From: Candidatus Hodarchaeota archaeon
GTDB lineage: Archaea > Asgardarchaeota > Lokiarchaeia > Sigyniarchaeales > SOKP01
Length of the DNA stretch: 64,000 bases
Direction of reading: 5' to 3'
NCBI GenBank assembly: GCA_048887165.1
Contig: JBHLJZ010000006.1
Location: forward strand, 8,210-72,209
The position numbers were made by a program, and so were the translations under genes. The notes beneath the pieces were generated by a model. The model saw only the letters and a list, made by a program, of their open reading frames with translations, had not been told where the DNA came from and did no database searches. Shown here piece by piece: positions 29,060-46,482 of the stretch (the stretch's first letter is position 1; the number at the start of each line of letters is the position of its first letter).

Positions 29060-30235
29060 TTGAATAATAATATGTTCCCTACAAATAAGGATAAGGTAAA
29101 ATGTGAGCATTGTGGATATACTATTGTAAAACCTTATCCAAAAAATCAACTTTGTCCAAAATGTAATAAATTTTTAGCTAACTTATTTGAATACAAGGAT
29201 GATAATATTAATTCTACTAAAATCAAACCAAAAAATTTTGAAACAAAAACTACTACAGTTTCATCAAGGTTAAAGGGAGTTAGTGTCAAGAGTAAACAAC
29301 CTCAGTTTTCATTAGAAGATGAAATCATTTTTTTAAAAGATGAGGAAGAATATGTCAAATTTTGTGGGGTTACCTCTGTTGATCGAAAACAACTATTTCA
29401 TAGTAATCAGAAATATAAATATTTATTAGAATTGACTAATAATTTGGACTTTATAGCGACGGGTATTCTTGGAGGAGAACTTGATAAGATGCTTCTCATT
29501 TCTAAAGATTATAAAGAAGAAAAAGGCCAATTTTACGTCAAAAATGGAATAATCTATATAGTATATGGTGTGTTTCCTGATAAAAAAGGAAAATGGATAC
29601 TTGAACAAATGGCAAAATTTTATTCTGATTTAGTAAAAGGAAAGGATGTAAATAATCTTAATAAACTTGAAGAAAGTGAGATTAAGAGAGATTATAGAGG
29701 GATTCTAAAATCTATTTTAAAAGAATATTTAGCTTTACAAGATGTCTTTACAGACCAGGATCTTCCCTATTTAGAAGATTGGATAAGAATTGATTATCTT
29801 GGTCTATCTTCAATGTCGATTGGAGTGATTTCTCTTCTTTTAGATCAAGGGGAATATTTGCAAATTGAAGCACCTGAAGAATATGATAATCCTGCTGAAG
29901 AAATTGAAATGAAAGAGTCATTATTAACCGCAAAAATCGAAGCAATTGCAGCAAATACTTTAGGTAATACTGGTGCCTATCCTCGATGGATAGCGGTTAA
30001 ATTAGGATTTCAAAATTATAGATTCCTAACTTTTAAGAAGTATCAAAATGATTATTTTCTTTCTTTTCTTTCTGAAGGAAATTTAAAAAAGATTGAAAAC
30101 GTTGAAAAAGAATTAGAACCTTTATTACATCATGGTATTGATTCACCCTTTTCAGGTAATTTAAAACCTTTCAATAGATTAAAAGCGACTCTAACGGAAA
30201 AATTCAAAAATGTACCAGAAAGGAAATTCTCATAA
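29060..30235 (+). CDS. Hypothetical zinc-ribbon protein with two putative roadblock/longin-like alpha/beta modules
   Basis: 391 aa, with ATG at 29072 the likelier start. It has an N-terminal CEHCG...CPKCN zinc ribbon. The later segments YIVYGVFPDKKGKWILEQMAKFY and YRFLTFKKYQNDYFLSFLSEGNLKKIENVEKEL have a roadblock/longin-like pattern. That pattern is an inference by eye. Confidence 0.35.
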   Translation: MNNNMFPTNKDKVKCEHCGYTIVKPYPKNQLCPKCNKFLANLFEYKDDNINSTKIKPKNFETKTTTVSSRLKGVSVKSKQPQFSLEDEIIFLKDEEEYVKFCGVTSVDRKQLFHSNQKYKYLLELTNNLDFIATGILGGELDKMLLISKDYKEEKGQFYVKNGIIYIVYGVFPDKKGKWILEQMAKFYSDLVKGKDVNNLNKLEESEIKRDYRGILKSILKEYLALQDVFTDQDLPYLEDWIRIDYLGLSSMSIGVISLLLDQGEYLQIEAPEEYDNPAEEIEMKESLLTAKIEAIAANTLGNTGAYPRWIAVKLGFQNYRFLTFKKYQNDYFLSFLSEGNLKKIENVEKELEPLLHHGIDSPFSGNLKPFNRLKATLTEKFKNVPERKFS

Positions 30236-30288: not shown

Positions 30289-31248
30289 ATGGCTTCATCT
30301 CCCAAGAAAATTTATGAAGATTATATTGAAAATTATGTAAATAGAACTATTGCTATAGAGTTATTGATTTCAATAATTGAAAATTCAGAGAATGAATCTA
30401 ATAGGTTTGAAGCTATTGAAATTTTAGATAAAATCAAGGCAAGTAGTCCGGAGATTTTTAAATTATATGAAAATTTGATGATTAGTGACTTAAATTCTAG
30501 AATCAGAGCACGTGCTATTTTATATCTTCCAAAATATTTCGTAGAAGAAGCTTTACTTCCATTAAAATGGGCAATTAGACACGAAGATTCATATGAATGT
30601 TTAATCAATATTATTAAAACTCTTGAAAACTACTATCCAAAGGAATCCCATTCAATCTTTTTAGAAGAAATAAAAAAAATCAGGAAGATTCGCTATTTAA
30701 ATTATGAAAAAAGGTATGAGAATAGAAAATTCAAAAAAGCATTAAAAAAGTTAATAAAATCGAGTCAAATTAAAAATTTTTCAAAAAACAAATTAGCTGA
30801 AATTTTAATCAATTATTTCACCATTCAAAATCTCTCTAGTAAATTCCCTAATATGTTTTTTGAGTTAGAATCGCAAAATGCTTTAGTAAGGGAATTAGAT
30901 TTATCTGATTACTTAGAGCATGAAGTTAAAGGAACTCCTTGGGGCTGGAAGAATAATATTCAATCAATTTCAGAAATAACTGGATTGGAAAATTTAAAAA
31001 ATCTAAAAAGTTTAGATTTATCTAATAATCTAATAAACGATATAAAAGATTTAATCGAATTAAAGAATTTAACTCATCTAATTTTGTCAAATAATAAGAT
31101 TAGTCATCTTGAAAATCTTGACTATATAAAAAAATTACCAAATCTTAAAGTTATAGATCTTAGTGGAAATGATATTGTTAATTTTTTTAATCCTGAAGAC
31201 TTTAAGACAAAAACTAGAATTCTCGTAAGAAGATCACTTATAGAATAG
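30289..31248 (+). CDS. HEAT-like repeat + short LRR protein (paralogue 4, SDS22-like 22-residue LRRs)
   Basis: 319 aa. The N-terminus is homologous to the other three (PKKIYEDY...AIELLISIIENSENESNRFEAIEILDKI, ISDLNSRIRARAILYL, AEILINYF). About 4-5 LRRs follow (LKSLDLSNNLINDIKDL...). Confidence 0.75.
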   Translation: MASSPKKIYEDYIENYVNRTIAIELLISIIENSENESNRFEAIEILDKIKASSPEIFKLYENLMISDLNSRIRARAILYLPKYFVEEALLPLKWAIRHEDSYECLINIIKTLENYYPKESHSIFLEEIKKIRKIRYLNYEKRYENRKFKKALKKLIKSSQIKNFSKNKLAEILINYFTIQNLSSKFPNMFFELESQNALVRELDLSDYLEHEVKGTPWGWKNNIQSISEITGLENLKNLKSLDLSNNLINDIKDLIELKNLTHLILSNNKISHLENLDYIKKLPNLKVIDLSGNDIVNFFNPEDFKTKTRILVRRSLIE

Positions 31249-31281: not shown

Positions 31282-32628
31282 TTATTCTATTAACTGTGTT
31301 TTCCCAGTACCCCATATTCCAAGAGCTTTACCTAATTCTTCATGATCCTTGGCATATTTACTAACCGAAATACCTTGCATAACCGCATCAATTGCTTGTC
31401 TAAACGCCTTTGCACCAGAAATGGGACCATCGGGATGACTATGAATACCTCCTCCACTTCCTATAAGTATGTCCAATCCAGCTTCTTTTATACATTTTTC
31501 TACCATACCTTGCGTTATTCCACCACTAGGCATTGGTAAGGTAGGTTTTATATGTTGGAATGGATACCTAAGAGCTTTTAAATTTTGTTCATATCTTTCT
31601 TCAAGAATTTCTGCCTTTCCATAAGGGGCGGGGATTACAACAGTATCTGCTCCACACATCCTAGGGAATTTTGCAAGTACTAACATCGAAGTCAGTCCAG
31701 TCCACTCACCTCCAATATATGCCCCACCAAAATCCATATGCCCTAAAATCGGTACTTTTATTGAAGGATCTTCGGCAATCGCTCTCAATGCTTCAAAACC
31801 TGAAGTTAGATAATTAAGCATTAATGCATTAGCTCCAAGTTCTATCATTTTATCAGCATATTCAAACATTTCGGGAAACTTTGTGGTAATATTAATAGTA
31901 TAAAGTGTTTTTTCTCCTTTTTCTGAATCTGCTCTGTCAACAGCTTCCATTACCTTCACAATTCTATCTTCTAACCTGTTAAAAGAAGGATCCGAAATCA
32001 ATTCGTCATCTTTCACAACATCACAGCCACCAACAGCTGCTTTATATACTAAATCAGCAGCAACTTCACAAGTGTGACCTGTACATGGTTTAACCATATT
32101 GTTTAATAAAGGGCGCTCTGGTATTTTCATAAGCTTTCTTATACCATCAATTCCAAATTTGGGTCCTTTAAATTCTTCAAGATATTCTTTTGGAAATGCT
32201 AAATCAACTAATTTTAAACCATGAGTTAAACTAATATTACCAATTACTGTAGTAAGAAGCATTGGGATTCCCATTCCTTTAATATTTACAATAGGGAAAC
32301 CAATCTGAGCGAAATAATATCGTTCTTTCACATCCTTTGGTATAACGTATTCATAATGAGGTAATTCATACACTCCAAGTACTCTTGCTACATGATATTT
32401 TCTAACTTCTTCGGTTTCTGCAGGAACTCTAACCCATGTTCCTGTTGATTGTTCTATTGCTGCAAATCTAGATAAGTAATTAACATTCATTCCTTTTGGT
32501 CTTTTAATAATGAAGCTTGCAATTATATATTTCTCCAAATCAATGCCGTCTAAGCCAATAGCTTCTGGGATATCAAAATATTTTTCTGTACTGTCCATAA
32601 TTATATCAAGAAAGTGTAATTTTTTCAA
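31282..32628 (-). CDS. RuBisCO large-subunit family protein, probably a RuBisCO-like protein (form IV-like) rather than a carboxylase
   Basis: 448 aa. EQSTGTWV, GNIS, VKDDE and the C-terminal GSGGGIHSHPDGPISGAKAFRQAIDAVMQG are very close to archaeal RbcL. However, VKPCTG replaces KPKxG, GHMDFGG replaces GHRAMH, and VVIPAPYG replaces LHVGT. The comparison is from my memory of form III sequences. Confidence 0.7.
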   Translation of the reverse strand: MKKLHFLDIIMDSTEKYFDIPEAIGLDGIDLEKYIIASFIIKRPKGMNVNYLSRFAAIEQSTGTWVRVPAETEEVRKYHVARVLGVYELPHYEYVIPKDVKERYYFAQIGFPIVNIKGMGIPMLLTTVIGNISLTHGLKLVDLAFPKEYLEEFKGPKFGIDGIRKLMKIPERPLLNNMVKPCTGHTCEVAADLVYKAAVGGCDVVKDDELISDPSFNRLEDRIVKVMEAVDRADSEKGEKTLYTINITTKFPEMFEYADKMIELGANALMLNYLTSGFEALRAIAEDPSIKVPILGHMDFGGAYIGGEWTGLTSMLVLAKFPRMCGADTVVIPAPYGKAEILEERYEQNLKALRYPFQHIKPTLPMPSGGITQGMVEKCIKEAGLDILIGSGGGIHSHPDGPISGAKAFRQAIDAVMQGISVSKYAKDHEELGKALGIWGTGKTQLIE

Positions 32629-32692: not shown

Positions 32693-33796
32693 TCAGTCTT
32701 TAGATTTAGTTCTGGATTTTAAATTCATATAAGTATTTTCGAGAACATTCAAATATTCAATTAGTACTTTATCTGCTTTAGATTTTTTCTCGTATTCTGC
32801 TTTAATGATATTCAATAGATATTTTGGAAAGATGAGATCTAAATAGAAATCCGTGAGTAAAGCATAATATTCATTACCTCTTTCATCTTGAAAAACTTGG
32901 ATCATTTGACTCTCCCAGAGCATTCTTAAAACTTCGTTTATATCTTCAACTCCTTTCTTTTTAAGCTTTTCAAGGTCATTCTTAGTAACTATCGCTGTTC
33001 TTAATAGCCTTAGAGTCTCATAAACTTGAGGATTAATGATAACATCGATAATTCTAAGATTATCTTGTTCTGAGGGTTTATATCCTTGGAAGAATTTCTT
33101 TGTTTCAGTTCTATAATCTTCAGCAAGTCGTATAGGCAAACCTCTATCAGCAGGATCTTTTAGAAGTTGTACAGGAGGAACTCTTAAGATTAAGATGTCA
33201 TTTGTCAAGAAAATTAATTCAGAAGGCATACCTTTTACTGATGTTTCCTTAATTATTTCTCGTTTAGTTAATTCAATTAGAACACTCTCTAAATTTAAGA
33301 ATCCTTGTTTATATTTATCTTTTAACCATAACATTAATTCTGATTTAGAAACTACACCCTCGTCTCTAAGCCGATTAATTATCATTCTCTTTATCTCATC
33401 TTGAAATATCATGGCCAATCTCTGTTCAGCATTAAGAGAAGGGTAAACTGATAGACTTCGGAATAATGAAGGAACCATCGTCAAATAATTATCATCTTCA
33501 AGATTCTGTAAAATAATCCTTGAAGTGTCAATTAAACCACCTTCATAAGCGTCGGGATCATCATCTAAGTTTAATAATAAAAGAATATAATAACCATTTT
33601 CTGGACCGGTATAATATGAAGCTATGTTCAATGAACCTACCATTAGACTTATCATTCCTGATTCTCCACTGTACTCATGAGTACTATATACCTGCATCAA
33701 AGTTTTTTCAGTTACAATAATTTCTTCAGGATATTTTGCCAGTATTTCAGTACCGATTCTTTCATTCCATTTCATTAAGACTAATCCTACAGGCAT
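32693..33796 (-). CDS. Cassette A, gene 2: cytoplasmic protein with an N-terminal longin/roadblock-like domain and two winged-helix-like domains (paralogue of 35734-36843)
   Basis: 367 aa, about 60% identical by eye to the 369-aa ORF at 35734-36843 (MPxGLxLMxW, MISLMVG.LNIAS.YTG, INRLRDEGVVSKSEL, SVKGMPSEL, KKGVEDI, EYYALL). Its ATG overlaps the stop of the upstream membrane-protein gene (TAATG). Domain assignment is by pattern only. Confidence 0.5.
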   Translation of the reverse strand: MPVGLVLMKWNERIGTEILAKYPEEIIVTEKTLMQVYSTHEYSGESGMISLMVGSLNIASYYTGPENGYYILLLLNLDDDPDAYEGGLIDTSRIILQNLEDDNYLTMVPSLFRSLSVYPSLNAEQRLAMIFQDEIKRMIINRLRDEGVVSKSELMLWLKDKYKQGFLNLESVLIELTKREIIKETSVKGMPSELIFLTNDILILRVPPVQLLKDPADRGLPIRLAEDYRTETKKFFQGYKPSEQDNLRIIDVIINPQVYETLRLLRTAIVTKNDLEKLKKKGVEDINEVLRMLWESQMIQVFQDERGNEYYALLTDFYLDLIFPKYLLNIIKAEYEKKSKADKVLIEYLNVLENTYMNLKSRTKSKD

Positions 33797-34227
33797 TATA
33801 TAACGCCTCCTCTTGATTCACCCATTTGAGGTAATTTCTTCTTTTTTTTTGATTCTAATCCTAATATAACTTCCAAAGATAAGCCTAGCATCGCCCATTT
33901 ATCTCCGAATTTCTTAACCATATGTTCTTGTTTTGAGGGATATAAAAGGGAATCTGATATTGACTTTCTACTCTTTATATTTTTACTTATTTCTCTTGCT
34001 CTTTTTACGAATATTGGAATTTTTGCTTTTTGAATTGCTATGTATATGACTAAACTCCCTACAACTGCAACTACTACAATTACTATCATTAGGAAGTAGA
34101 ATATTGGAAATCCAAACATTTCTACCATATCGACAATAACCGTCGAAAATAGTGCTAGCGTTGTAATTATTAATACTAAGAAAAGTAAGATTAAATATTT
34201 AGATTTTGAATTCGTTTTAAAACTCAT
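33796..34227 (-). CDS. Cassette A, gene 1: small two-TM membrane protein carrying the conserved TM + basic cytoplasmic tail module
   Basis: 143 aa with two hydrophobic helices. The tail, IQKAKIPIFVKRAREISKNIKSRKSISDSLLYPSKQEHMVKKFGDKWAMLGLSLEVILGL, is homologous to the C-terminus of the 1443-aa protein at 36843-41174. Confidence 0.6.
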   Translation of the reverse strand: MSFKTNSKSKYLILLFLVLIITTLALFSTVIVDMVEMFGFPIFYFLMIVIVVVAVVGSLVIYIAIQKAKIPIFVKRAREISKNIKSRKSISDSLLYPSKQEHMVKKFGDKWAMLGLSLEVILGLESKKKKKLPQMGESRGGVI

Positions 34228-34600: not shown

Positions 34601-35644
34601 ATGCTAAGACAAATTTATATCTTAAAAGACGGTAATGTTTTATACGAAAAGAACTTTGGAAAAGCGTTAACCCATGAGTCATTTCAAAATATTTCTCAGG
34701 AGATTTTAAAAGAGGCATCTCGAGGTTTGGGAAAGGATTTCGGAAGCACTTATTTTTTTAAACACAAAATCGTATATTCTTACGAGAAAGAATGCGGTTT
34801 ATTATTTATATTAATAGTGGGTTTAAACGATGAGATGAATCAAGTAAAATCAGAGATAACAAAGTTAAAAAATGAGTTTATAAACATTTTTGGAGATAAT
34901 CTTGATAATCTTGATACTTCTCTCATTGAGTTATTAAATCCTTTAATCTTTTCAATATATAAAAATATTAAAACAAAAATCTCTTTAGTAGGTTTTTCTG
35001 GAGTTGGGAAAACAACCATCACAAAATTAATCAGATCAGAAGAAATACCTGATGTACATATCCCTACCATAACTGGAAAAGTGTCAGCAATAAAGATAGG
35101 AAAATTGTATTTTCATTTATGGGATTTTGCTGGACAGGAACAATTTAGTTATTTATGGAATGATTTTATATATGGAAGTGATGCTGTTCTCGTAATAACT
35201 GATTCTTCATTAGAAAACGTTGAAAAGAGTAAATTTTTCATTGAATTACTAAAAGAAAATGCGCCAGATGCTCATGCTGCAATTATTGGAAATAAACAAG
35301 ATTTACCGGACGCCTTAAGTGTTGAAAAAATAGAAGAAATTCTTAAATTAAAAACTTATTCAATGATTGCTATAGATCCGGATAATCGCAATAAAATGAT
35401 TCAAATTATAGCAGACATATTAGAAATTAATACAGAGATATCACCATTACTAAAACCCCTTTTTGAAAGAGATTCTTTAATTTCTCAAGCTGAAACTTAT
35501 TTGAAAGAAGGAAACATGGTAAAAATTCACGAATCTTTTGAGAAAATCTCTGAGTTATGCTATGAACTAGGAGATTTCATTCTCTATAAAGAATTTCGTG
35601 AAAAAGCTGATAAAATTAAAGGACATTTAGGATATATTTTATGA
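34601..35644 (+). CDS. Longin-like domain fused to a Ras-superfamily small GTPase, with a C-terminal helical extension
   Basis: 347 aa. G-domain motifs are G1 GFSGVGKTT, switch-I PTITGK, G3 WDFAGQEQF and G4 GNKQDL. The N-terminal ~115 aa (IYILKDGNVLYEKNF...YFFKHKIVYSYEKECGLLFILIVGLNDEMNQVKSEITKLKNEFINIF) follow the longin profile. An ~80-aa helical tail follows the G domain. Confidence 0.65.
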   Translation: MLRQIYILKDGNVLYEKNFGKALTHESFQNISQEILKEASRGLGKDFGSTYFFKHKIVYSYEKECGLLFILIVGLNDEMNQVKSEITKLKNEFINIFGDNLDNLDTSLIELLNPLIFSIYKNIKTKISLVGFSGVGKTTITKLIRSEEIPDVHIPTITGKVSAIKIGKLYFHLWDFAGQEQFSYLWNDFIYGSDAVLVITDSSLENVEKSKFFIELLKENAPDAHAAIIGNKQDLPDALSVEKIEEILKLKTYSMIAIDPDNRNKMIQIIADILEINTEISPLLKPLFERDSLISQAETYLKEGNMVKIHESFEKISELCYELGDFILYKEFREKADKIKGHLGYIL

Positions 35645-35733: not shown

Positions 35734-36843
35734 TTATTTTTCTGATTCTGATTCTATTGGTAATTTAGTATGTCGGTAAGTATCTTCAAGTACTTTTAAA
35801 TATTCCAATAGAACGTTTTCAGATTTAGATTTTACCTCATATTGGTGCATTACCGTATTTAAGACATACTTAGGATATATTAAAGACATATGAAAGTCAG
35901 AAAGTAAAGCATAGTACTCAATACCGCGATTGTCTTGAAAAACATGAGCAAATTTATTTTCCCATAGTTTTCTTATTCCTTCATCGATATCTTCAACGCC
36001 CTTCTTTCTAAGTTTTGCTAAAGCGTTTTTAGTTACAACAGCAATTCTTAATAGTTTTAAAATTTCATAGATTTGTGGATCTGTAATTAAATCAATAATT
36101 TTTAAACTATCCTCTTCAGATGGGCGGTATGTCTGGAAAAAGCTCCGAACTTTTGACTTGTATTCACTTATAAGGCTTTCAGGAAGGCCTCTCTCTTCTG
36201 GCTTTTTTAACAACTTTATTGGAGGTCTCCTAATTATTAATGGATCATTAATAAGAAATAATAATTCTGAAGGCATCCCTTTTACTGAGGCTTCTTTTAT
36301 TATTTCTTTTTTAATTAATTCCATTAAAGTTGCATCTATATCAAAAAATCCTTTTCGATATTTATCCTTAAGCCATACTTTTAGCTCTGATTTCGAAACT
36401 ACACCTTCATCTCTTAATCTGTTGATTATCAATCGATTTACATCATCTTGGTAAGTTAAAGCTAAATTCTGCTCATCAGTTAAATAAGGATATGCGGAAA
36501 GTCTTTGAAATAGAAATGGTAGCATCTCCATATATGCATTATCTTCAATGTTTTGCATAATAATCCGAGAGATATCTGTCAGCCCTCCTTCATAAAGATC
36601 CGGATCATCTTCCAAACTTAAGAGAACAATTATGTATAATGATCTTTCTTTTCCTGTATAAAATGATGCTATATTCAAATGACCAACCATCAGACTAATC
36701 ATTCCTGGCTCTCCTGTATATTCATGAGCAGCATATATTTGCATTAAGGTTTCATCAGAGACTATTAATTCTTCAGGATATTTAGTAACAATTTCCGTTC
36801 CTACTTTAGGATCCCATCTCATCAATATTAATCCTAATGGCAT
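35734..36843 (-). CDS. Cassette B, gene 2: longin/roadblock-like + double winged-helix-like protein (paralogue of 32693-33796)
   Basis: 369 aa, full-length paralogue of 32693-33796, with the same TAATG stop/start overlap with the upstream gene. Confidence 0.5.
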   Translation of the reverse strand: MPLGLILMRWDPKVGTEIVTKYPEELIVSDETLMQIYAAHEYTGEPGMISLMVGHLNIASFYTGKERSLYIIVLLSLEDDPDLYEGGLTDISRIIMQNIEDNAYMEMLPFLFQRLSAYPYLTDEQNLALTYQDDVNRLIINRLRDEGVVSKSELKVWLKDKYRKGFFDIDATLMELIKKEIIKEASVKGMPSELLFLINDPLIIRRPPIKLLKKPEERGLPESLISEYKSKVRSFFQTYRPSEEDSLKIIDLITDPQIYEILKLLRIAVVTKNALAKLRKKGVEDIDEGIRKLWENKFAHVFQDNRGIEYYALLSDFHMSLIYPKYVLNTVMHQYEVKSKSENVLLEYLKVLEDTYRHTKLPIESESEK

Positions 36844-39800
36844 TATTCAGTATCTCCTCCATTTTTAATTAATTTATCCTTCCTTTTTGACATTTTAATC
36901 CTCATATCCTTTACTCCATAAACATCATCTAAAGAAAGACCTAACTCTTTCCATTCCTCTCCGAATAATTTTATCAAAGTCTCATCTTTCGAAGGAATAG
37001 AAATAGTTTCAGTTATAGGCTTTTTAGATTTTATATAGCCTTTCACTTTCCTGATCTTCTTAATATGTTTTGGAATTCGAGCTTGTTGAATTACTCTGTA
37101 TCCTACAAGACTACCAACAATACCTAAGGATCCAGCAACTATCAAAATGAAATAAAATGTAGGCATTCCAGGAAATACTTCTTTCATCTTTATTGTTATG
37201 GTGATATCGATTTCCTGAGTAGTAAAATTCGCTTTTTGAGCAAAGATTGTTCCTGGAAAAGTTTGTGAAATGAAGAAAGCTTGAATTTCATCAGTCTCAA
37301 AATTTAGTGTATAAGTACCAGGTGATTGTTCCTCGAAATAATAATCAATTTCTTGAGCGCGTAAAAAGACTGTAGCGTTTTCAAGAGGTATATATCCTCT
37401 AGATTCATCCATTAAATTGATTGTAATTTCGATATCATTTCCCTGAACGGCGCTAACTTGCTTTCCTTTAATATTAGTGGCATCAAGAGTATAATCAATC
37501 TCTCGATACCTAATTTCTAAATTAATAAGAGCAAATCTAGATTCGTAATTATTCTTTTGGAGATTGATATACAGAAAATAGAATCCAACACTCCTTATTT
37601 CAGTATTGAAATCCAATGAATAAGTTTTGTCTGCTTTTTGACTTAATATTCCAGAGCCATCAATTCCGGGGATAATTGATCCATTCGAATATAATTTTTG
37701 CCATGTATAAGAAGCAATATCTAAATCTCCAAGTATTTGACCACCTAATAACGTATCAGCATAGGAATAAGTAAAGTTTATTTCATCCTCAACCCATATC
37801 CAAGGGTTAGAATATGCGATAAATGAACTTCCATTTATAGTTGTTGGTCTCTCTAGAACTTCAAGAAATGTGTTAATTGTCTTTGATGTATAATTTTCTT
37901 TCAAGGCTGTTATTGTGATTGGATACTTACCAACATTTATCGCTAAACTTGTATTAATAGTACAGTAATAATAGTTATCATCAATAGGATCTTCAATAAA
38001 ATAAATGAGTGGTTGAGTAAGCCAATCAAATGTAATTGTTGCTCCATCTAATTTACTATCTGGAGGTACATAATATCTAACTGTAATATTAATGATTTCA
38101 CTAAACTCTTTTTCTAGTTCTGATATTTGTAGATGTGTAGCATAATCGTATAAATCTAGACTTGTTGCTGTAGCATTCACTCTTACCTGGTGATAATAAG
38201 GTTCTGGAGATTCATATCCTGGTACTAAGCCATCAATTATAAACCAGTAGTTTTTATAATTATTTCCAGCAGATAATTTACTTGAATTAATAGTAAGAGA
38301 ATAATTCATTAAAGTAAGGCCTTCATAATTTGCTGTTAAATCTACTATTAATACTGTTTGACCAGTATCCCAATCTTCTATATAACATGTAAAGAATCCT
38401 TCATCAGGCACTAAGTACCAATTAGTTCCATCGTCAGAATATGATATATTAATAGTTATATGTAAATCTCCAATACCCCATATTGCTTGCGAAATTTCAG
38501 CAATTATATCTATCTGAGTTTCTAATGTAGGTGGTGGGGGAGTTGCTTCATAATCAAGTATAATAGATGAATTTTGGTTCAATGTGTAATTATATTCAGA
38601 AACTTCTCCAAGAGGTTCCCATTGTTTTGGAGATGTGTTATTTACTGTAAAGTTAGCTGCAACTCCAATTCTCCTAAGTGTTATATTATAACTAAATCCA
38701 ATTCGAAATATAAAAGGTTCATATTCAGTATCGCTATGAGACGCCCAGCCATCGTTGTTTGTAGTTAAAGTTGTGATAATTGTTGTACCATTCCAGATTC
38801 TTACACTAACAAAAGGAACGGGATTATATGAATCATCATCATCAATAACCCTTACATTCATTTTAGATAAAGCTGTTTTGTTATAGATGTTAGTTAATTC
38901 TGTAGTATTGATCTTTATTATACCTGTATGAGCTCCAGCATTATAACCTTGAACATCAACTAATATACCATAAACTTCGTAATTCTCTCCCTTTAATTTA
39001 TCATTATCAACTGTTCCAATATCGATAGATTTAAAATATGATGTGCCTGACATAGATAGATTTTGATAAATTATATTCCCTGATGTTTGATTATATTTGT
39101 CAATATAGTAAATTGTCATATTATCAATCTGTTGATCCATCGATTCCAACGTTATATTAAAATTAATCAGCTTCTTATTGCTAAAATCACTCATCGATCC
39201 TCCGGTGTAAATACGTTCATTAACTTTATAATAATCTCCAGGATCTTGGTCGTAAATATTTAGGGATAATGAATGGTCAAAATACTTATCATATTGGGTG
39301 TAGTCAGATCGGTAAATGTAGCTTGAATTCAAAAGAAAATCATTAACATTATATCTTGTGTTATAGAAGAAAACCTCATAATAGTAAAATGATGCATTAT
39401 TCCATCGAAATCTTGCTGTACCATTAACTAGTGATATCTGCTTTAATAGAGTACCTCCACTATCATTGTAGACCTTCACGTATCCATCATCAAAAAGATC
39501 ATCATCCCAATCTACTATTTCAAAATCAATTGTCCAAATGTCCAGATATAAATCATATATATGGGATAATTCAGATACATTGTATAAATTCCAACTAGAT
39601 GTTCCAAAATTATCTCTTGTACTATTGAATACTTCATCTTCATAACTAGGGATAAAAGTATAATTCACAGAGAAGTTATATATGCCAAAATTTAAACCAG
39701 TAAAGATTGTTTGACCTGTTTGATCAGTAGTTTGCTTTTTTATTAATGTTGTATCCTGCATTAATGAAACTTCGGCATTTGGAACAATCATACCATCAAT

Positions 39801-41174
39801 ATCCCGAGCTATAACAGTAATATCGGATTTTTGTGTCTGTATCTCATTTAATTCAACTGTTATATCATCACTATAAGTGAATTCAACATCATCAACTTGG
39901 ACAAAAGCAGTATCATAATTACCCACAGTATTTTCATCACCATACATTCCAAATTCTAATGAAATGTTTTGACCCATATAATTACTTAGATCAAATGTTA
40001 CTAAACCTGTTAAATCACCTTGGGATGTATCAAAAGTTCCTGTTATTATACCAGTAGTGTAATTTTGTAATGAATAATAACCTTTATTATTATGAGTAAT
40101 TCCCTTAAAATATTCTAAATACTCACCAATTTGTTGATGTTGATCTGGATCGACGAATAGATTGGAAGCATTAATTACTCGAACAAAATATCCATCATTC
40201 CAAGCCTTAGATGAACTCCCATCAAATCCCCAAGTTTTAACGTTCTGCCAGAATCTTATATAAATACTCCCACTACCATCATTAACAATTGGAACGGTAA
40301 ACGGGTTGGTATAAAAAACTCCAGCATATTGATCGTCGTTACCCACACTTTCAGTTATTGAAGTTTGATTCGAACCCCATTTATAAGTATATGTTCCTCT
40401 TACTTGTTCTACGCCTCCAGGTACGTCAATTAAACAATTTTGCCACCATTCAGTTGCTTGATCTTCAGTTTGTGAATCTTCTCCCACATCTGGAGGTCTG
40501 GGTGCAATATCATCAGGTACATCATCAGACCAATTCCATCCTACTGGATTATAATAGTGAGGTGTTATTGACGGATCACCAGTTGGATCGTCCCCACTCG
40601 GCACATATTCGAAGTCCCCATTTTTTACTAATCCAATACCATACTCAACTGCAGTAGTCTCAACATCCATATTTCCATAGTATAAATATACATCAGTTTC
40701 GGTATTACTAGAGGCAGAAAGATTTGTATTGAAATATATTGCTGCGTCGCCTATTGAATAATCTTCACCATTGAAATCTTGAAAAATGTAAAACTCTCTT
40801 TCAATCGGTTCATTATTGATATATTCTATGACTCTTATATCTTTTAAAGTATCATTTACTTTACCTTGATATTCAGGATCTCCATAAGGAAGATTTACAA
40901 CAACTCCATAATTTTTTAGGTCTACACCAGCTAGATTTGTTATATTTACTAGTGACCTATAAGGCCAATCAGAATCCCACCATGGATGATCACCAGCAAT
41001 ACTTGATCTAGGATTTAATATTGTATCATCAAACTCATTCTCACCTATAGGATTCAACTCAAAGAGAAATGGAGCTAAACTATAGTAAATGCTCCCAGAA
41101 GTTATCGCTATTAATATAACCGACAGTGAAAGTAGTTTTGTAATCTTTTTTTTTCTATTCATAGTTTCTATCAC
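36843..41174 (-). CDS. Cassette B, gene 1: giant type-I surface glycoprotein (DUF2341-like, carboxypeptidase-regulatory-like and Ig-like beta domains) with the conserved TM + cytoplasmic tail module
   Basis: 1443 aa from the GTG at 41174; ATG at 41162 is more likely (MNRKKKITKLLSLSVILIAITSG, a signal/anchor). WWDSDWPYRSLVNITN...DIRVIEY...VYLYYGN resembles DUF2341. DITVIARDIDGMIVPNAEVSL...TDQTGQTIFTGLNFGIYNF resembles a CarboxypepD_reg fold. There are dozens of NxS/T sequons. The C-terminal TM is FYFILIVAGSLGIVGSLVGY, followed by the basic tail. Confidence 0.6.
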   Translation of the reverse strand: MIETMNRKKKITKLLSLSVILIAITSGSIYYSLAPFLFELNPIGENEFDDTILNPRSSIAGDHPWWDSDWPYRSLVNITNLAGVDLKNYGVVVNLPYGDPEYQGKVNDTLKDIRVIEYINNEPIEREFYIFQDFNGEDYSIGDAAIYFNTNLSASSNTETDVYLYYGNMDVETTAVEYGIGLVKNGDFEYVPSGDDPTGDPSITPHYYNPVGWNWSDDVPDDIAPRPPDVGEDSQTEDQATEWWQNCLIDVPGGVEQVRGTYTYKWGSNQTSITESVGNDDQYAGVFYTNPFTVPIVNDGSGSIYIRFWQNVKTWGFDGSSSKAWNDGYFVRVINASNLFVDPDQHQQIGEYLEYFKGITHNNKGYYSLQNYTTGIITGTFDTSQGDLTGLVTFDLSNYMGQNISLEFGMYGDENTVGNYDTAFVQVDDVEFTYSDDITVELNEIQTQKSDITVIARDIDGMIVPNAEVSLMQDTTLIKKQTTDQTGQTIFTGLNFGIYNFSVNYTFIPSYEDEVFNSTRDNFGTSSWNLYNVSELSHIYDLYLDIWTIDFEIVDWDDDLFDDGYVKVYNDSGGTLLKQISLVNGTARFRWNNASFYYYEVFFYNTRYNVNDFLLNSSYIYRSDYTQYDKYFDHSLSLNIYDQDPGDYYKVNERIYTGGSMSDFSNKKLINFNITLESMDQQIDNMTIYYIDKYNQTSGNIIYQNLSMSGTSYFKSIDIGTVDNDKLKGENYEVYGILVDVQGYNAGAHTGIIKINTTELTNIYNKTALSKMNVRVIDDDDSYNPVPFVSVRIWNGTTIITTLTTNNDGWASHSDTEYEPFIFRIGFSYNITLRRIGVAANFTVNNTSPKQWEPLGEVSEYNYTLNQNSSIILDYEATPPPPTLETQIDIIAEISQAIWGIGDLHITINISYSDDGTNWYLVPDEGFFTCYIEDWDTGQTVLIVDLTANYEGLTLMNYSLTINSSKLSAGNNYKNYWFIIDGLVPGYESPEPYYHQVRVNATATSLDLYDYATHLQISELEKEFSEIINITVRYYVPPDSKLDGATITFDWLTQPLIYFIEDPIDDNYYYCTINTSLAINVGKYPITITALKENYTSKTINTFLEVLERPTTINGSSFIAYSNPWIWVEDEINFTYSYADTLLGGQILGDLDIASYTWQKLYSNGSIIPGIDGSGILSQKADKTYSLDFNTEIRSVGFYFLYINLQKNNYESRFALINLEIRYREIDYTLDATNIKGKQVSAVQGNDIEITINLMDESRGYIPLENATVFLRAQEIDYYFEEQSPGTYTLNFETDEIQAFFISQTFPGTIFAQKANFTTQEIDITITIKMKEVFPGMPTFYFILIVAGSLGIVGSLVGYRVIQQARIPKHIKKIRKVKGYIKSKKPITETISIPSKDETLIKLFGEEWKELGLSLDDVYGVKDMRIKMSKRKDKLIKNGGDTE

Positions 41175-42699: not shown

Positions 42700-43785
42700 A
42701 TGGCACAAAATTTAATTGTTTTAGGAGAACTCCATCAAGATTTATATTATGAAACTGATTTTTATGAGGATCTAGTAGAAAAAATTGTTTCTAATATTAC
42801 AAACTTTGTAAGATACAATCCTGATGATATAAGTAAAAAAATTCTTGAAAAATTGGTGCAAAGAGGATTCTCAGATACTCCAAAAAAAATTGAAGGCCGC
42901 TGTTTTTTCAAAAGAGGAGGTAATGGAAATAACTCTTCTGAATATTTTGCAAGTTTGGGAGTTCCAACTAAACTTATATCTGTGATTGGAAGGGGAAGTG
43001 AATGGATGATTGATGAACTGAAGGAACTAGGGATAAATACTGACTCAATATTTCAGATAGATGAAATAACACCTGTAAGTACCATTATTAAATCAAAATT
43101 TACTACAAAAATACATTTAGCTCCAAACCTAAAAGAAAAGATGAATTTTGATGGATTGAATATATCTAATGGATTATTGGATAATGCAAAGTTAATATTT
43201 TCAACTCCTATAGCACAAAAATTTATAAATTTATTTAATAGAGGTGCAAATTCTGGATTAATTACCGCCTTTAATATTGAAAGACAAAAAATTCATACTT
43301 TAGAAGAACTCTCAGAATTAATTAAGGAGAAAAAACATTTATCTTTTCTTAATGTAAAAGATGCCTATCGAATTTTAGATAAAAAACTTTCAATAGATGA
43401 AGTAGATGAAATCTTTAAACAATTTGCACAAATCCGAATTTATACTGCAGGGAAAGATGGCTCCTATGTGTTTACAGACTATCTGAAGATTTTTTATCCC
43501 GGGATAGAAGTAGAAGCAATAATTGATAGAACGGGTGCAGGCGATTGCTATGCTGCGGGTTTTTTAACTAAATTATATGAACTTGTCGAAGATAAAAATC
43601 ATTTAGAACAATTACTTAAAAAGGAAAAATTAGAAATAACTAAGAAAATTCTAACTTCATGTATTGAATACAGTACTCATGCAGCAATATATAAAATAAC
43701 TAAACAAACTACTCCAACCAAAATTGAAATGGATAATTTTATTAAAACTTTTAAAATTAAGAATAAATTAAATGTTATTGAATAA
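42700..43785 (+). CDS. PfkB-family carbohydrate/nucleoside kinase
   Basis: 361 aa with GGNGNNSS (GG motif region) and the C-terminal IDRTGAGDCYAAGF (DxxGAGD motif). Confidence 0.75.
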   Translation: MAQNLIVLGELHQDLYYETDFYEDLVEKIVSNITNFVRYNPDDISKKILEKLVQRGFSDTPKKIEGRCFFKRGGNGNNSSEYFASLGVPTKLISVIGRGSEWMIDELKELGINTDSIFQIDEITPVSTIIKSKFTTKIHLAPNLKEKMNFDGLNISNGLLDNAKLIFSTPIAQKFINLFNRGANSGLITAFNIERQKIHTLEELSELIKEKKHLSFLNVKDAYRILDKKLSIDEVDEIFKQFAQIRIYTAGKDGSYVFTDYLKIFYPGIEVEAIIDRTGAGDCYAAGFLTKLYELVEDKNHLEQLLKKEKLEITKKILTSCIEYSTHAAIYKITKQTTPTKIEMDNFIKTFKIKNKLNVIE

Positions 43786-44707
43786 TCTGTAAGATAAGAT
43801 TCTCCATTTGGGGTTTTGCAGCTTCAATCTTATCTAATACTTCAACAGTCTGTCCTAAATCTTCTTCATTTTCTTCAATTATGAATAATAAGTAGAAATC
43901 TAAATTTCCAAACTTTAGAACCTCAACTACACCAGAATATCTGTCTCCATTTTCAAACTTATCAGAAAATTCAAATAATGTCCTATTTTCATCAATTATT
44001 TTCTTTTGAGCTTCCAAATATTTATCATAAATTCTCATTTTTTCGGTAAGATGCAGATGAGGGCGGTAAAATTCTCCAATTGTTATTCCTTTTACATCAA
44101 ACAATGAAATCATAATAGCATTGTAATTTTTACTTATTTCAGCAAATAATTGTGATACCATCTCTATTTTGTCAAACAGTAAAGAAAGCCCACTTGAAAA
44201 TGCATCCATTACAGATTTAATGTCATATATAGTTGTTTCAAAGAAAAAAATATCAAAATCATGACTATATCGTGTTAAAGCTTGCTTAATTGTCAAAATT
44301 CTCTGATTTATAACTCTATCTTTAACAAGTTGGGGATCAAATTTGTGGAACAATATACAAATCGGAGGATATTCTTGCTCTTCTTTAAAGTAAAGTAATA
44401 ATCGATCAATATAATCTATAGATTCAACATATCGATCGAAATCTTGTGCATCAATGACATAAAAAACTAAATCTGTTCCTGCAATATACTTATTAGGCTT
44501 TTTTAAGTATTCTTCTCTATATTGCGATTGACCTCCAAAATCCATCCTTACAAACTCAACACCTAAAAATTTAAAGGCGTCTCGAGCAACTTTTCTTGTT
44601 GGCATTAATTTCGAGACTTCCTCTTCAAATCCAAATCTTTTTGTGATAACAGTAATTATACTAGTTTTACCTGCATTATCTAATCCTAAGAAAGCAATTT
44701 TTTGCAA
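43775..44707 (-). CDS. Rag/Gtr1-family GTPase (G domain + C-terminal roadblock domain)
   Basis: 310 aa. G-domain motifs are G1 GLDNAGKTS, G3 DFGGQSQY and a Rag-type G4 HKFD (ICILFHKFDP, compared with RagA CLVHKMDL). TTIYDIKSVMDAFSSGLSLL is collinear with RagA [19 protein letters not shown]. The C-terminal ~130 aa alpha/beta domain has the size of the Rag roadblock dimerisation domain. Confidence 0.8.
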   Translation of the reverse strand: MQKIAFLGLDNAGKTSIITVITKRFGFEEEVSKLMPTRKVARDAFKFLGVEFVRMDFGGQSQYREEYLKKPNKYIAGTDLVFYVIDAQDFDRYVESIDYIDRLLLYFKEEQEYPPICILFHKFDPQLVKDRVINQRILTIKQALTRYSHDFDIFFFETTIYDIKSVMDAFSSGLSLLFDKIEMVSQLFAEISKNYNAIMISLFDVKGITIGEFYRPHLHLTEKMRIYDKYLEAQKKIIDENRTLFEFSDKFENGDRYSGVVEVLKFGNLDFYLLFIIEENEEDLGQTVEVLDKIEAAKPQMENLILQIIQ

Positions 44708-45243: not shown

Positions 45244-46482
45244 TTATAAAATTTTAATTTCTTCAACATCTTCAATATATTTACTAATTAAATCATCAAG
45301 TTTCAAGGAATAATATATCTCTTTCAATTTTTCATAATTAAATTCTTGATTTCTCGGTTTGAAATGGCAATAATCAAATTTTTTGAATTCGGTTGAGATT
45401 TGATTTGAAATTTCAGTGATCTTTTCAAAATCTGATCCAATATTGGGAGTAAATATTGGAAAATGGGAGAATAAGTAATTAAGAGATATTGTCTCTAGTT
45501 CTATTTCATCTGGACATAAGGTTGATTTATTTAGACTAACACCATCTATTATTCCCACTGATTTACGTAAATCAAGAAATTTAGAAATTTCCAATAATCT
45601 TGCTAAAATATTAAGCCTAACTAGCTTACAGATACTACAATAATGTTGTTTATCCTCAATTCTTTCAAAAATTCTTTCTAAAATGTGAAATAAATCCACT
45701 TTTAATAATCTAAAGTTATTTAACGGAAAATAATCTCTTATGATTTCCCAATTGGATACCCAATTTTTAAAATAATTATTATTGTTCATATTATCAAATA
45801 ATACAGGATAAATCACACAACCTCTTCTCATCATTAAAAATCCAGCAACGATATCATTTATTCTACCAATATCCATTACTATTACTTTCTTCGGAGGTTC
45901 TATCGGTAAACCTCCCCAATTATTTCTTATAATTTGGGAGAAAATGTAAGCAAATTCATCTCTAACTTCTATATATATTTTTTTGTTAGGATTAGTTAAA
46001 TTTACTTTTAAATTCAATTCTTTCATATTATCTAAAATTTCTTGTCCAACAACTTTGGCAATTTCCAATGAATTATAATCATGTTTACCAGATCTTTTTA
46101 TTCTAAGAGCGAATGAATCATGATGCTGTAAAATCTCTTTCGCTGCTTCAATTGTTCTCTCTGAAATATTTTTAAGGTTGGATGAGGTTCTAAGTGCAGG
46201 ACTTATAGAATATATTCCAAATACATTTTTTAAAATGTTAATAGCATCAATTAAATCCTCATTGTTAAAAAAAAAGAAAATTCGTGAAGAATCTTTACTT
46301 AATTGATATTTATGAAAAGAAATGTTATTGCGATTGAGTACTTTCTTAATATTATTCATTAATATCTTCAACATTCGAATCTTAACTTTTTGAGATTTAA
46401 GCCAAATTTCTCCATATCGGATTAAAATTAAATTATATTGCTTTAAAATCTGTATTTTATCCATGTTTAACATGAAATCCAA
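45244..46482 (-). CDS. ThiI-like THUMP-domain protein with a degenerate PP-loop
   Basis: 412 aa. The N-terminal ferredoxin-like and THUMP domains are present (LILIRYGEIWLKSQKV, FALRIKRSGKHDYNSLEIAKVVGQ, GGLPIEP). Where ThiI has LLSGGIDSPVAGYLMMKRG, this protein has VMDIGRINDIVAGFLMMRRG. A CxxC motif is retained (HYCSICK). Confidence 0.7.
   Translation of the reverse strand: MDFMLNMDKIQILKQYNLILIRYGEIWLKSQKVKIRMLKILMNNIKKVLNRNNISFHKYQLSKDSSRIFFFFNNEDLIDAINILKNVFGIYSISPALRTSSNLKNISERTIEAAKEILQHHDSFALRIKRSGKHDYNSLEIAKVVGQEILDNMKELNLKVNLTNPNKKIYIEVRDEFAYIFSQIIRNNWGGLPIEPPKKVIVMDIGRINDIVAGFLMMRRGCVIYPVLFDNMNNNNYFKNWVSNWEIIRDYFPLNNFRLLKVDLFHILERIFERIEDKQHYCSICKLVRLNILARLLEISKFLDLRKSVGIIDGVSLNKSTLCPDEIELETISLNYLFSHFPIFTPNIGSDFEKITEISNQISTEFKKFDYCHFKPRNQEFNYEKLKEIYYSLKLDDLISKYIEDVEEIKIL

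Follow-up and report, generated by a model that had tools for sequence, protein, structure and literature searches.

A transmembrane and tail segment shared by giant and miniature Asgard surface proteins, and its candidate longin/winged-helix partner

What is kept, and for what, when a giant surface protein loses its entire extracellular part? The question is raised by a stretch of 64,000 nucleotides (nt) from a Candidatus Hodarchaeota archaeon (assembly GCA_048887165.1, contig JBHLJZ010000006.1, positions 8,210 to 72,209), hereafter the window, which is AT-rich (~30% G+C) and encodes two membrane proteins of 1443 and 143 amino acids (aa) that end in the same transmembrane (TM) helix and basic cytoplasmic tail. 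A first-pass annotation regarded this common end as a portable module, conserved while the ectodomain was swapped or absent, and took it for a docking or sorting signal. Our analysis suggests that the TM helix and tail probably anchor a dedicated cytoplasmic longin-domain partner at the membrane and form its docking site, the partner being encoded by the next gene, and that two paralogous partners of this kind may serve as a platform for a small GTPase. The features on which the argument rests, which form two tail-partner gene pairs (A and B), are given below by window position.

36843..41174, minus strand: giant surface protein of pair A, a 1443-aa open reading frame (ORF) with an N-terminal signal/anchor, a sequon-rich LamG/Ig-like ectodomain, a C-terminal TM helix and a basic cytoplasmic tail
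36843..37190, minus strand: juxtamembrane motif, TM helix and conserved tail of the giant (BLASTP, tail profile)
~37089-37172, minus strand: C-terminal TM helix of the giant, aa 1335-1362 (hydropathy)
~36846-37088, minus strand: cytoplasmic tail of the giant, aa 1363-1443 (hydropathy, charge)
36854..36860, minus strand: Shine-Dalgarno-like GGAGGAG in the last codons of the giant gene, 10 nt before the partner ATG
35734..36843, minus strand: cognate partner of pair A, 369 aa without a TM segment, with a predicted acidic longin domain, two winged-helix domains and C-terminal helices
33796..34227, minus strand: ectodomain-less member of pair B, 143 aa, consisting of a signal-anchor, a 5-residue loop, a TM helix and the tail
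33806..33812, minus strand: Shine-Dalgarno-like GAGGAGG within the final codons of the gene for the 143-aa protein, before the partner ATG at 33796
32693..33796, minus strand: cognate partner of pair B, 367 aa (partner profile match)

The shared C-terminus and the loss of ectodomains

Residues 22-136 of the 143-aa protein align with residues 1318-1439 of the 1443-aa protein at 42% identity and 66% positives over 122 aa (BLASTP, E 5e-28). The alignment spans the juxtamembrane motif, the last TM helix and the entire cytoplasmic tail, and a similarity of this order far exceeds chance. The resemblance seen at first pass is thus real, the motifs listed for it (FYF, VGSLV.Y..IQ.A+IP and PSK.E...K.FG..W..LGLSL) are present, and the C-terminal end is indeed basic, with tail net charges of +9 in the giant and +12 in the short protein. 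A tblastn search found no third copy of the tail in the 64-kb window, so that the copies number two. As deposited in the public protein collection (P0001), the 143-aa sequence is a hypothetical protein of a 'Candidatus Hodarchaeota archaeon' metagenome-assembled genome (MAG).

The expectation that a profile of the tail would find further members was amply confirmed. A first profile, built from the two window tails and used in a word-indexed protein search, matched 36 proteins, mostly contig-end fragments. A profile of 26 sequences (A2), used in an exhaustive search of 1.84 billion representatives at E<=1e-3, matched 274 representative clusters, 96 of them at E<=1e-30, and in nearly all full-length matches (proteins of 1200-2500 aa) the tail is located at the extreme C-terminus. 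In species-representative genomes we found 170 tail-encoding stretches, nearly all labelled Asgard (Promethearchaeota, Hermod-, Hod-, Thor- and Odinarchaeota), together with some 'uncultured archaeon' and one bacterium. Pfam, NCBIfam and PADLOC scans of tail and partner gave no match (nor did the anti-phage defence models of PADLOC return anything relevant), no curated family for either was found in four hidden Markov model (HMM) libraries, and full-text literature searches turned up no published account of either family or of the cluster. For the analyses below we used a genome sample of 71 loci (L001-L071) and a second sample of 80 metagenome loci chosen via the partner.

Several members are unusual. 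In P0214 and P0283 the tail continues into a long stretch of acidic, E/D/Q-rich repeats (150-250 aa) in place of the protein end or a partner, and in P0263 (152 aa) a CxxC-type zinc-ribbon-like N-terminus replaces the signal-anchor ahead of the TM helix and tail, an architecture that may place both ends in the cytoplasm or may reflect mis-assembly. A typical giant and partner pair at locus L047 (DATKTW010000037.1) is deposited as the bacterium Candidatus Nanopelagicaceae, which is probably a binning error, and phylum labels look inconsistent among Asgard MAGs with near-identical clusters.

To which ectodomains is the tail attached? Across the 71 genome loci, every one of the 103 ectodomains upstream of a tail is homologous to that of the window (BLASTP E 1e-13 to 0), with the best conservation in the membrane-proximal 250-900 aa. 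The homologues possess Laminin_G_3 above the Pfam cut-off, plus CarboxypepD_reg/Ig-like domains, while the 1443-aa giant itself gives weak CarboxypepD_reg/Big_1 matches; its ectodomain is acidic, is 81% identical to that of locus L007, and the giant contains 41 N-x-S/T sequons where 16.6±3.4 are expected. Since the ectodomains are homologous, module shuffling is unneeded, and a shuffled TM and tail module was rejected for want of any non-homologous ectodomain among the 103. The tail did not, then, prove to be portable, LamG/Ig-like content being common to the proteins that carry it, and of the description 'swapped or absent' only absence stands, in the form of the 143-aa deletion derivative described next. 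The tail-bearing giants thus constitute one Asgard family of C-terminally anchored surface glycoproteins, of which the two window proteins are paralogous members; its typical architecture combines a LamG and Ig-like ectodomain with a single TM helix and ~80 aa of basic cytoplasmic tail.

The history of the short protein can be read from L007, the nearest relative of the window (DNA identity 80-85%), which at the same position encodes a protein of 1460 aa (L007:12991-17373). The first 28 residues of this protein (MSFKTNSKSKYMLIFLFLLLTSTTLAFF) match the N-terminus of the 143-aa protein (a match of 27 aa), and the 121 residues at its end share 78.5% identity with residues 23-143 of the latter. 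At the DNA level, collinearity runs from window position 45998 to 34140 (L007 1221 to 13081) and resumes from 34143 to 30871 (L007 17026 to 20309); given this break (window ~34140-34143 against L007 13081/17026), the window is without ~3.94 kb, in frame. The 143-aa protein is therefore a recent in-frame deletion derivative of the 1460-aa pair-B paralogue, in other words a pair-B giant minus its ectodomain that would keep the part needed to anchor its partner. Its origin by module transfer was rejected, because both ends match the L007 orthologue around the DNA gap.

Ectodomain loss has also occurred elsewhere, namely in a 147-aa clade (L009, L024, L030, L098 and P0278) and a 132-aa clade (L076 and L089). 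Both have N-terminal signal-anchors of their own, that of the 132-aa clade resembling full-length proteins at position B. The closest relatives of the 143-aa protein and of the 132-aa clade are likewise full-length position-B proteins rather than other short forms, and the 147-aa clade, which is more diverged (79-86% identity), scores about equally (106-107 bits) against the window 143-aa protein and the full-length L118. Loss of the ectodomain with retention of the tail has thus taken place at least three times independently. The ratio of nonsynonymous to synonymous substitution rates (dN/dS) is 0.30-0.32 within the 147-aa clade and 0.10 between the tails of the window 143-aa protein and L007, values from which we conclude that purifying selection continues to preserve signal-anchor, TM helix and tail once the ectodomain has been lost. 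Two further loci extend this deletion series from full length through ectodomain-less to none: at L094:9178-9542 and L132:1053-1108 the partner gene is kept and the giant/tail gene is absent entirely.

The partner gene and its linkage to the tail

In both window pairs the tail gene is followed on the same strand by its partner gene with an overlap of 1 nt, and the two partners (369 and 367 aa) are 62% identical to each other. The first-pass annotation expected other tails to be followed by a longin/winged-helix gene as well, an expectation that could have failed in either sample and did so in neither. The 71 genome loci contain 106 tail ORFs and 106 partner ORFs, and for all but five of the tail ORFs a partner ORF lies 0-21 nt downstream (usually 0-3 nt). 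Two of the five exceptions are at contig ends and two are the fused giants of locus L068, one of them also near the locus end; L021 and L057 were those in which no adjacent partner was detected. Conversely, in the partner-chosen sample (99 partner ORFs) a tail ORF lies directly upstream in 85, with 7 of the remainder lacking room and 2 lacking an upstream tail ORF. Direct adjacency accordingly holds for ~97% of tail or partner genes with room in both independent samples, and loss of the whole giant/tail gene with retention of the partner was seen in 2 of 94 cases with room.

The junctions are as uniform as the gene order. At ~100 homologous junctions the stop codon overlaps the partner ATG (TAATG), and a GGAGGTG-type Shine-Dalgarno sequence lies 8-14 nt upstream of this ATG, inside the last codons of the tail. 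Such signals suggest that the partner is made by translational coupling from the giant or tail gene before it. They also explain the conserved GG-x-x at the tail terminus, whose codons hold the Shine-Dalgarno sequence of the next gene. A role of GG-x-x as a processing or ubiquitin-like signal was rejected, since the glycines are those of the GGAGGTG ribosome-binding site and fusions are without a GG-x-x end.

Natural fusions of the Rosetta-stone kind strongly suggest a docking role. Several MAG lineages contribute to a set of at least 38 clusters (at 90% identity) in which tail and partner are encoded as one ORF in the order ectodomain, TM helix, tail, ~30-aa linker and partner. Over ~190 related loci, the tail is nearly always either followed by or fused to a longin/winged-helix protein that neighbours eukaryote-like small GTPases. 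The docking idea of the first-pass annotation is supported by these fusions together with other, independent lines of evidence. A distinct and larger version of the cluster is present at L068 (Hodarchaeota DZ1B.338), with two tandem fused giants of ~2660 aa each (L068:3410-11443 and L068:11605-19581) that adjoin a 674-aa GTPase of twice the usual length (L068:1103-3127).

Tail and partner also diverge in step. Over 155 unique pairs, tail and partner distances correlate with a Mantel r of 0.83 (permutation maximum 0.08), and the subfamily assignments of the two correspond nearly one to one. When the two pairs of a single locus are compared, the ectodomains are 34%, the tails 48% and the partners 63% identical. 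These figures suggest that giant and partner genes duplicate and diverge as a unit. Two further lines of evidence may be counted for docking, namely charge complementarity (tail +9/+12 against a partner longin domain of -11), and the autonomy of the TM helix and tail, in that all three ectodomain losses keep signal-anchor, TM helix, tail and partner.

What kind of protein is the partner? None of its 648 homologues bears a functional name, those named being 'hypothetical' or 'uncharacterized', and Pfam matches are absent. At the sequence level the window partners gave nothing in Pfam or NCBIfam at E<=0.1, 60 members gave no curated longin family at E<=10, and a comparison with PDB sequences gave nothing significant. 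The longin/winged-helix call of the first-pass annotation is nonetheless backed by structure prediction. AlphaFold2 models of the 369-aa partner (predicted local distance difference test, pLDDT, 83) and of a natural fusion (pLDDT 87, predicted template modelling score 0.70) both contain the longin topology beta-beta-alpha-beta-beta-beta-alpha-alpha, assigned by DSSP for the separate partner as E4-11, E15-22, H30-43, E47-53, E56-62, E70-75, H81-97 and H103-116 with pLDDT of 81-93, and in both models this domain is followed by two winged-helix domains and two C-terminal helices. Foldseek searches of the PDB with the whole chain returned GATOR1 chains as the best matches (9o5d_D at E 4.4e-4, 9v0j_A and 7t3b_B/C), in alignments of 327-346 columns with an overall template modelling score of ~0.2, as well as Fuzzy/Inturned. 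The longin domain matched VAMP7, Ykt6, AP sigma, zeta-COP, DENND1A and MglB at E-values of 0.02-0.1, with scores against VAMP7 (4afi, 4b93 and 2vx8) of 0.46-0.53 per target and a root-mean-square deviation of 3.5-4.6 Å. The winged helices matched ArsR/SmtB and ESCRT-II, along with CodY and Phr regulators. As far as model comparisons go, the list appears coherent although its scores are marginal.

The C-terminal helices of the partner are modelled at a pLDDT of ~51-64 alone as against ~91-93 in the fusion, where the tail helices and the coil between them reach 77-93, a pattern that would be compatible with packing of the tail on the partner. Charge is unevenly distributed, with the longin domain at a net -11, the winged helices at +1 and +1/-3, and the whole protein acidic (isoelectric point, pI, 5.1-5.4). 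The N-terminus carries the motif MP[IV]GL..M[RK]WD.[RK].[GS]TEILAKYPEE, in which the Trp is invariant (106/106), the [GS]-T position is G in 76 and S in 30 with T in 100 of 106, and position 13, in the loop, is occupied by R in 71 sequences and by K in 35, hence not by a strict arginine.

Neighbouring GTPases and competing explanations

Two small GTPases belong to the surroundings of the pairs:

34601..35644, plus strand: Arf-family-like GTPase, 347 aa, divergently transcribed
43775..44707, minus strand: Gtr1/RagA-family GTPase, 310 aa, 2.6 kb upstream of the pair-A giant

The 347-aa GTPase consists of a longin-like domain of ~115 aa, an Arf-like G domain (aa 122-256; Pfam Arf PF00025 at 77.5 bits, the cut-off being 22.3) and, at the C-terminus, a helical extension, and its nearest solved structures are Arf1/Arl5/Arl8 (E 1e-15). 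The Arf-type N-terminal amphipathic (myristoylated) helix was not found in it, the 115-aa domain preceding the G domain. The profile of this N-terminal domain gave weak, in-register VAMP7/SYBL1 longin matches in the PDB (E 0.4-1.1). A common origin with the longin domain of the partner was rejected, as hhalign shows no relation between the two. A GTPase of the 347-aa type lies between two pairs in 48 of the 71 genome loci and is absent where a single pair fills the same syntenic site. The 310-aa GTPase matches Pfam Gtr1_RagA with 81 bits against a cut-off of 22, and in 35 of the 46 loci with room a Rag-like homologue lies upstream of the first giant gene, at a distance of no more than 6 kb.

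From these elements we propose the following. The tail of each giant would dock a dedicated cytoplasmic partner with a longin domain and two winged helices, which in one subfamily has become fused to it. In what appear to be most genomes, two such pairs would flank a longin-like/Arf-like GTPase, and their tails would hold the two paralogous partners, possibly as a heterodimer, at the inner face of the membrane. There the anchored partners may act as a platform or regulator for the GTPase, linking the cell surface to a cytoplasmic switch. Docking of the partner to the TM helix and tail is, judged on sequence evidence, the best-supported reading, and in kind the cluster would combine a receptor tail and its adaptor with a longin platform on which small GTPases act.

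Several points weigh against it. The GTPase is absent from 23 of the 71 genome loci, and some single-pair genomes are without it, so that coupling to the GTPase is not obligatory. For the partner, fold comparisons reach only marginal values (best E 4e-4, score ~0.2 overall). Two loci keep a partner without any tail gene. Finally, adjacency, co-divergence and fusion would also be expected if the partner were simply a split-off cytoplasmic domain, an origin that is compatible with docking and silent on regulation.

Among other explanations, the one that survives best is the sorting signal of the first-pass annotation, by which the tail would be read by a coat-like adaptor, with the longin partner and the Arf-like GTPase sorting or clustering the giants into membrane domains, protrusions or vesicles, much as cargo tails are handled by AP/COPI longin subunits and Arf1 in eukaryotes. 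We consider this unlikely. The partner longin domain matches AP sigma, zeta-COP and VAMP7 at the fold level and an Arf-like GTPase lies within the cluster, but Pfam and NCBIfam scans found neither mu-homology nor appendage nor coat-like domains. The TM helix is directly abutted by an invariant Y-R-x-I, which sits at the membrane boundary; eukaryotic YXXphi and dileucine signals lie at least ~7 residues off the membrane and are read by a mu-homology or adaptin domain. One Asgard culture is reported to contain internal vesicles (10.1101/2025.11.06.686947). The ectodomain-less versions would have nothing to sort, yet are kept under selection. Above all, each giant protein has one dedicated partner, and 'cargo' and 'adaptor' are covalently joined in at least 38 clusters, quite unlike reversible and shared machinery, which leaves sorting as a minority rival.

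More improbable, in our estimation, is that the partner is a DNA-binding winged-helix regulator held inactive by the tail and released or cleaved upon ectodomain contact or ligand, which may be likened to Mlc-PtsG sequestration and to membrane regulators of the ToxR/CadC type. Its two winged helices do match ArsR/SmtB, CodY and Phr in Foldseek, a fused member (P0314) is named 'ArsR family regulator' by the Joint Genome Institute (JGI), and 26 of 60 partner members give a weak eWH_GTF3C1 match. The best whole-chain matches, however, come from the group of GATOR1, ESCRT-II and CPLANE, where paired winged helices beside a longin domain serve for protein interaction; the winged helices here are near neutral (+1, +1/-3) within an acidic protein (pI 5.1-5.4), and ectodomain-less anchors, which could sense nothing, persist. 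Very unlikely is mere paralogy, in which the tail is kept by descent and slow cytoplasmic evolution, the 143-aa ORF is decaying and the partner is syntenic without interacting: homologous ectodomains that need no shuffling, a window deletion recent relative to L007 and a broad synteny that includes a RuBisCO-like gene and a methyltransferase would fit it, but three independent in-frame deletions keep exactly signal-anchor, TM helix and tail, the 147-aa clade at 79-86% identity has a dN/dS of ~0.3, and fusions and overlapping stop/start codons with an internal Shine-Dalgarno sequence exceed passive synteny. It is thus charge, fusion and selection that make these last two explanations the less likely ones.

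Three genes downstream of the cluster recur with it to varying extents:

31282-32628, minus strand: homologue of the RuBisCO large subunit (448 aa, Pfam 165 bits), immediately downstream of the cluster; homologues at 42 of 71 loci
30289-31248, plus strand: protein of 319 aa with HEAT and leucine-rich repeats, just beyond the RuBisCO gene; homologues at 28 of 71 loci
29060-30235, plus strand: protein of 391 aa with an N-terminal zinc-ribbon-like CxxC...CxxC; homologues at 19 of 71 loci

Comparison with known longin and GTPase systems

With docking of a longin partner to the tail as the favoured explanation, we asked which described systems the cluster most resembles. In its predicted order of a longin domain followed by winged-helix C-terminal domains the partner is like GATOR1 NPRL2/NPRL3, FLCN-FNIP and C9orf72-SMCR8, with GATOR1 chains its top whole-chain Foldseek matches, and two paralogous partners beside small GTPases recall the longin heterodimers that act on Rag and Arf GTPases. 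The differences are considerable: at the sequence level the partner matches none of the Pfam families NPR2, NPR3, Folliculin and C9orf72 and no PDB entry, the overall template modelling score with GATOR1 is ~0.2, no DEPDC5-like subunit was seen, and attachment here would be via the tail of a surface protein, there via KICSTOR/Ragulator. At the level of motifs, W10-D11 of the partner with G/S at +5 reproduces the spacing of C9orf72 W33-D34...G38, part of the motif W33-D34...G38-P39 (PMC12290439). The spacing is a lead rather than a sign of membership, since the 'GP' of the partner reads G/S-T. With the GP motif and catalytic arginine finger as defined in the same work, no strictly conserved arginine was located at a candidate finger position in the partner sequences.

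A conserved tail on a TM protein, a longin-containing cytoplasmic protein and an Arf-like GTPase together also resemble the arrangement of cargo tails with AP or COPI and Arf1, and the partner longin domain superposes on AP sigma and zeta-COP. In contrast to those coats, one dedicated and sometimes fused partner is found here per receptor, large adaptin, mu-homology and coat subunits are missing, and the GTPase differs from Arf1 in having a longin-like domain instead of the N-terminal amphipathic helix. In the signal recognition particle (SRP) receptor, the SRX longin domain of SR-alpha is bound to the membrane-anchored, Arf-like SR-beta. This receptor and Ragulator-Rag are similar to the present cluster in pairing an anchored longin/roadblock platform with an Arf- or Rag-like GTPase, and differ from it in their anchor, which there is the GTPase itself or a lipidated scaffold and here the tail of a giant glycoprotein; SRP-related domains were not found in the cluster.

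Closer in taxonomy are the longin- and roadblock-fused GTPases surveyed in Asgard archaea, among which the 347-aa GTPase fits the Lokiarchaeia 'longin-GTPase, Rag/Arf-like' class (PMC10933270). That structural survey (Tran et al. 2024, PMC10933270) states that the GTPase genes of MK-D1 do not as a rule share operons with longin or roadblock genes, so that gene layout does not allow regulators to be assigned to GTPases. The cluster differs in linking a GTPase with longin genes and in adding membrane anchors, and as judged from gene order it would be a conserved exception to this rule.

Although rather doubtful at present, a further step is to see in the cluster a forerunner, anchored at the plasma membrane, of the longin/small-GTPase machinery that eukaryotes have in GATOR1-Rag or in adaptor-Arf systems. 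A pair of NPRL2/3-like partners on the tails of giant adhesin-like glycoproteins would then form a heterodimeric platform that acts as a GTPase-activating protein (GAP) or guanine-nucleotide exchange factor (GEF), with the adjacent longin-Arf-like GTPase and/or the upstream Rag-like GTPase as clients, so that binding at the surface would be relayed to a switch. The Rag-like GTPase may be a client of the NPRL2/3-like partners, or its position may reflect mere conserved synteny. If this forerunner view is true, the locus would be the first in a prokaryote to show receptor, anchor, longin regulator and client GTPase together.

Lokiarchaeum cells have no S-layer and display complex protruding surface proteins (PMC9834061), and the giant LamG/Ig glycoproteins would be the kind of 'complex surface protein' seen on these cells. 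Among the dozens of longin, roadblock and small-GTPase proteins that Asgard archaea possess, the locus connects one particular longin/winged-helix protein with one particular membrane anchor and with specific Arf-like and Rag-like GTPases. The natural mini-proteins of 132-147 aa and the fusions are ready reagents for studies of binding, GTPase regulation and membrane recruitment. If the link between them is true, the coupling of a receptor tail to a longin/GTPase module would predate eukaryotes.

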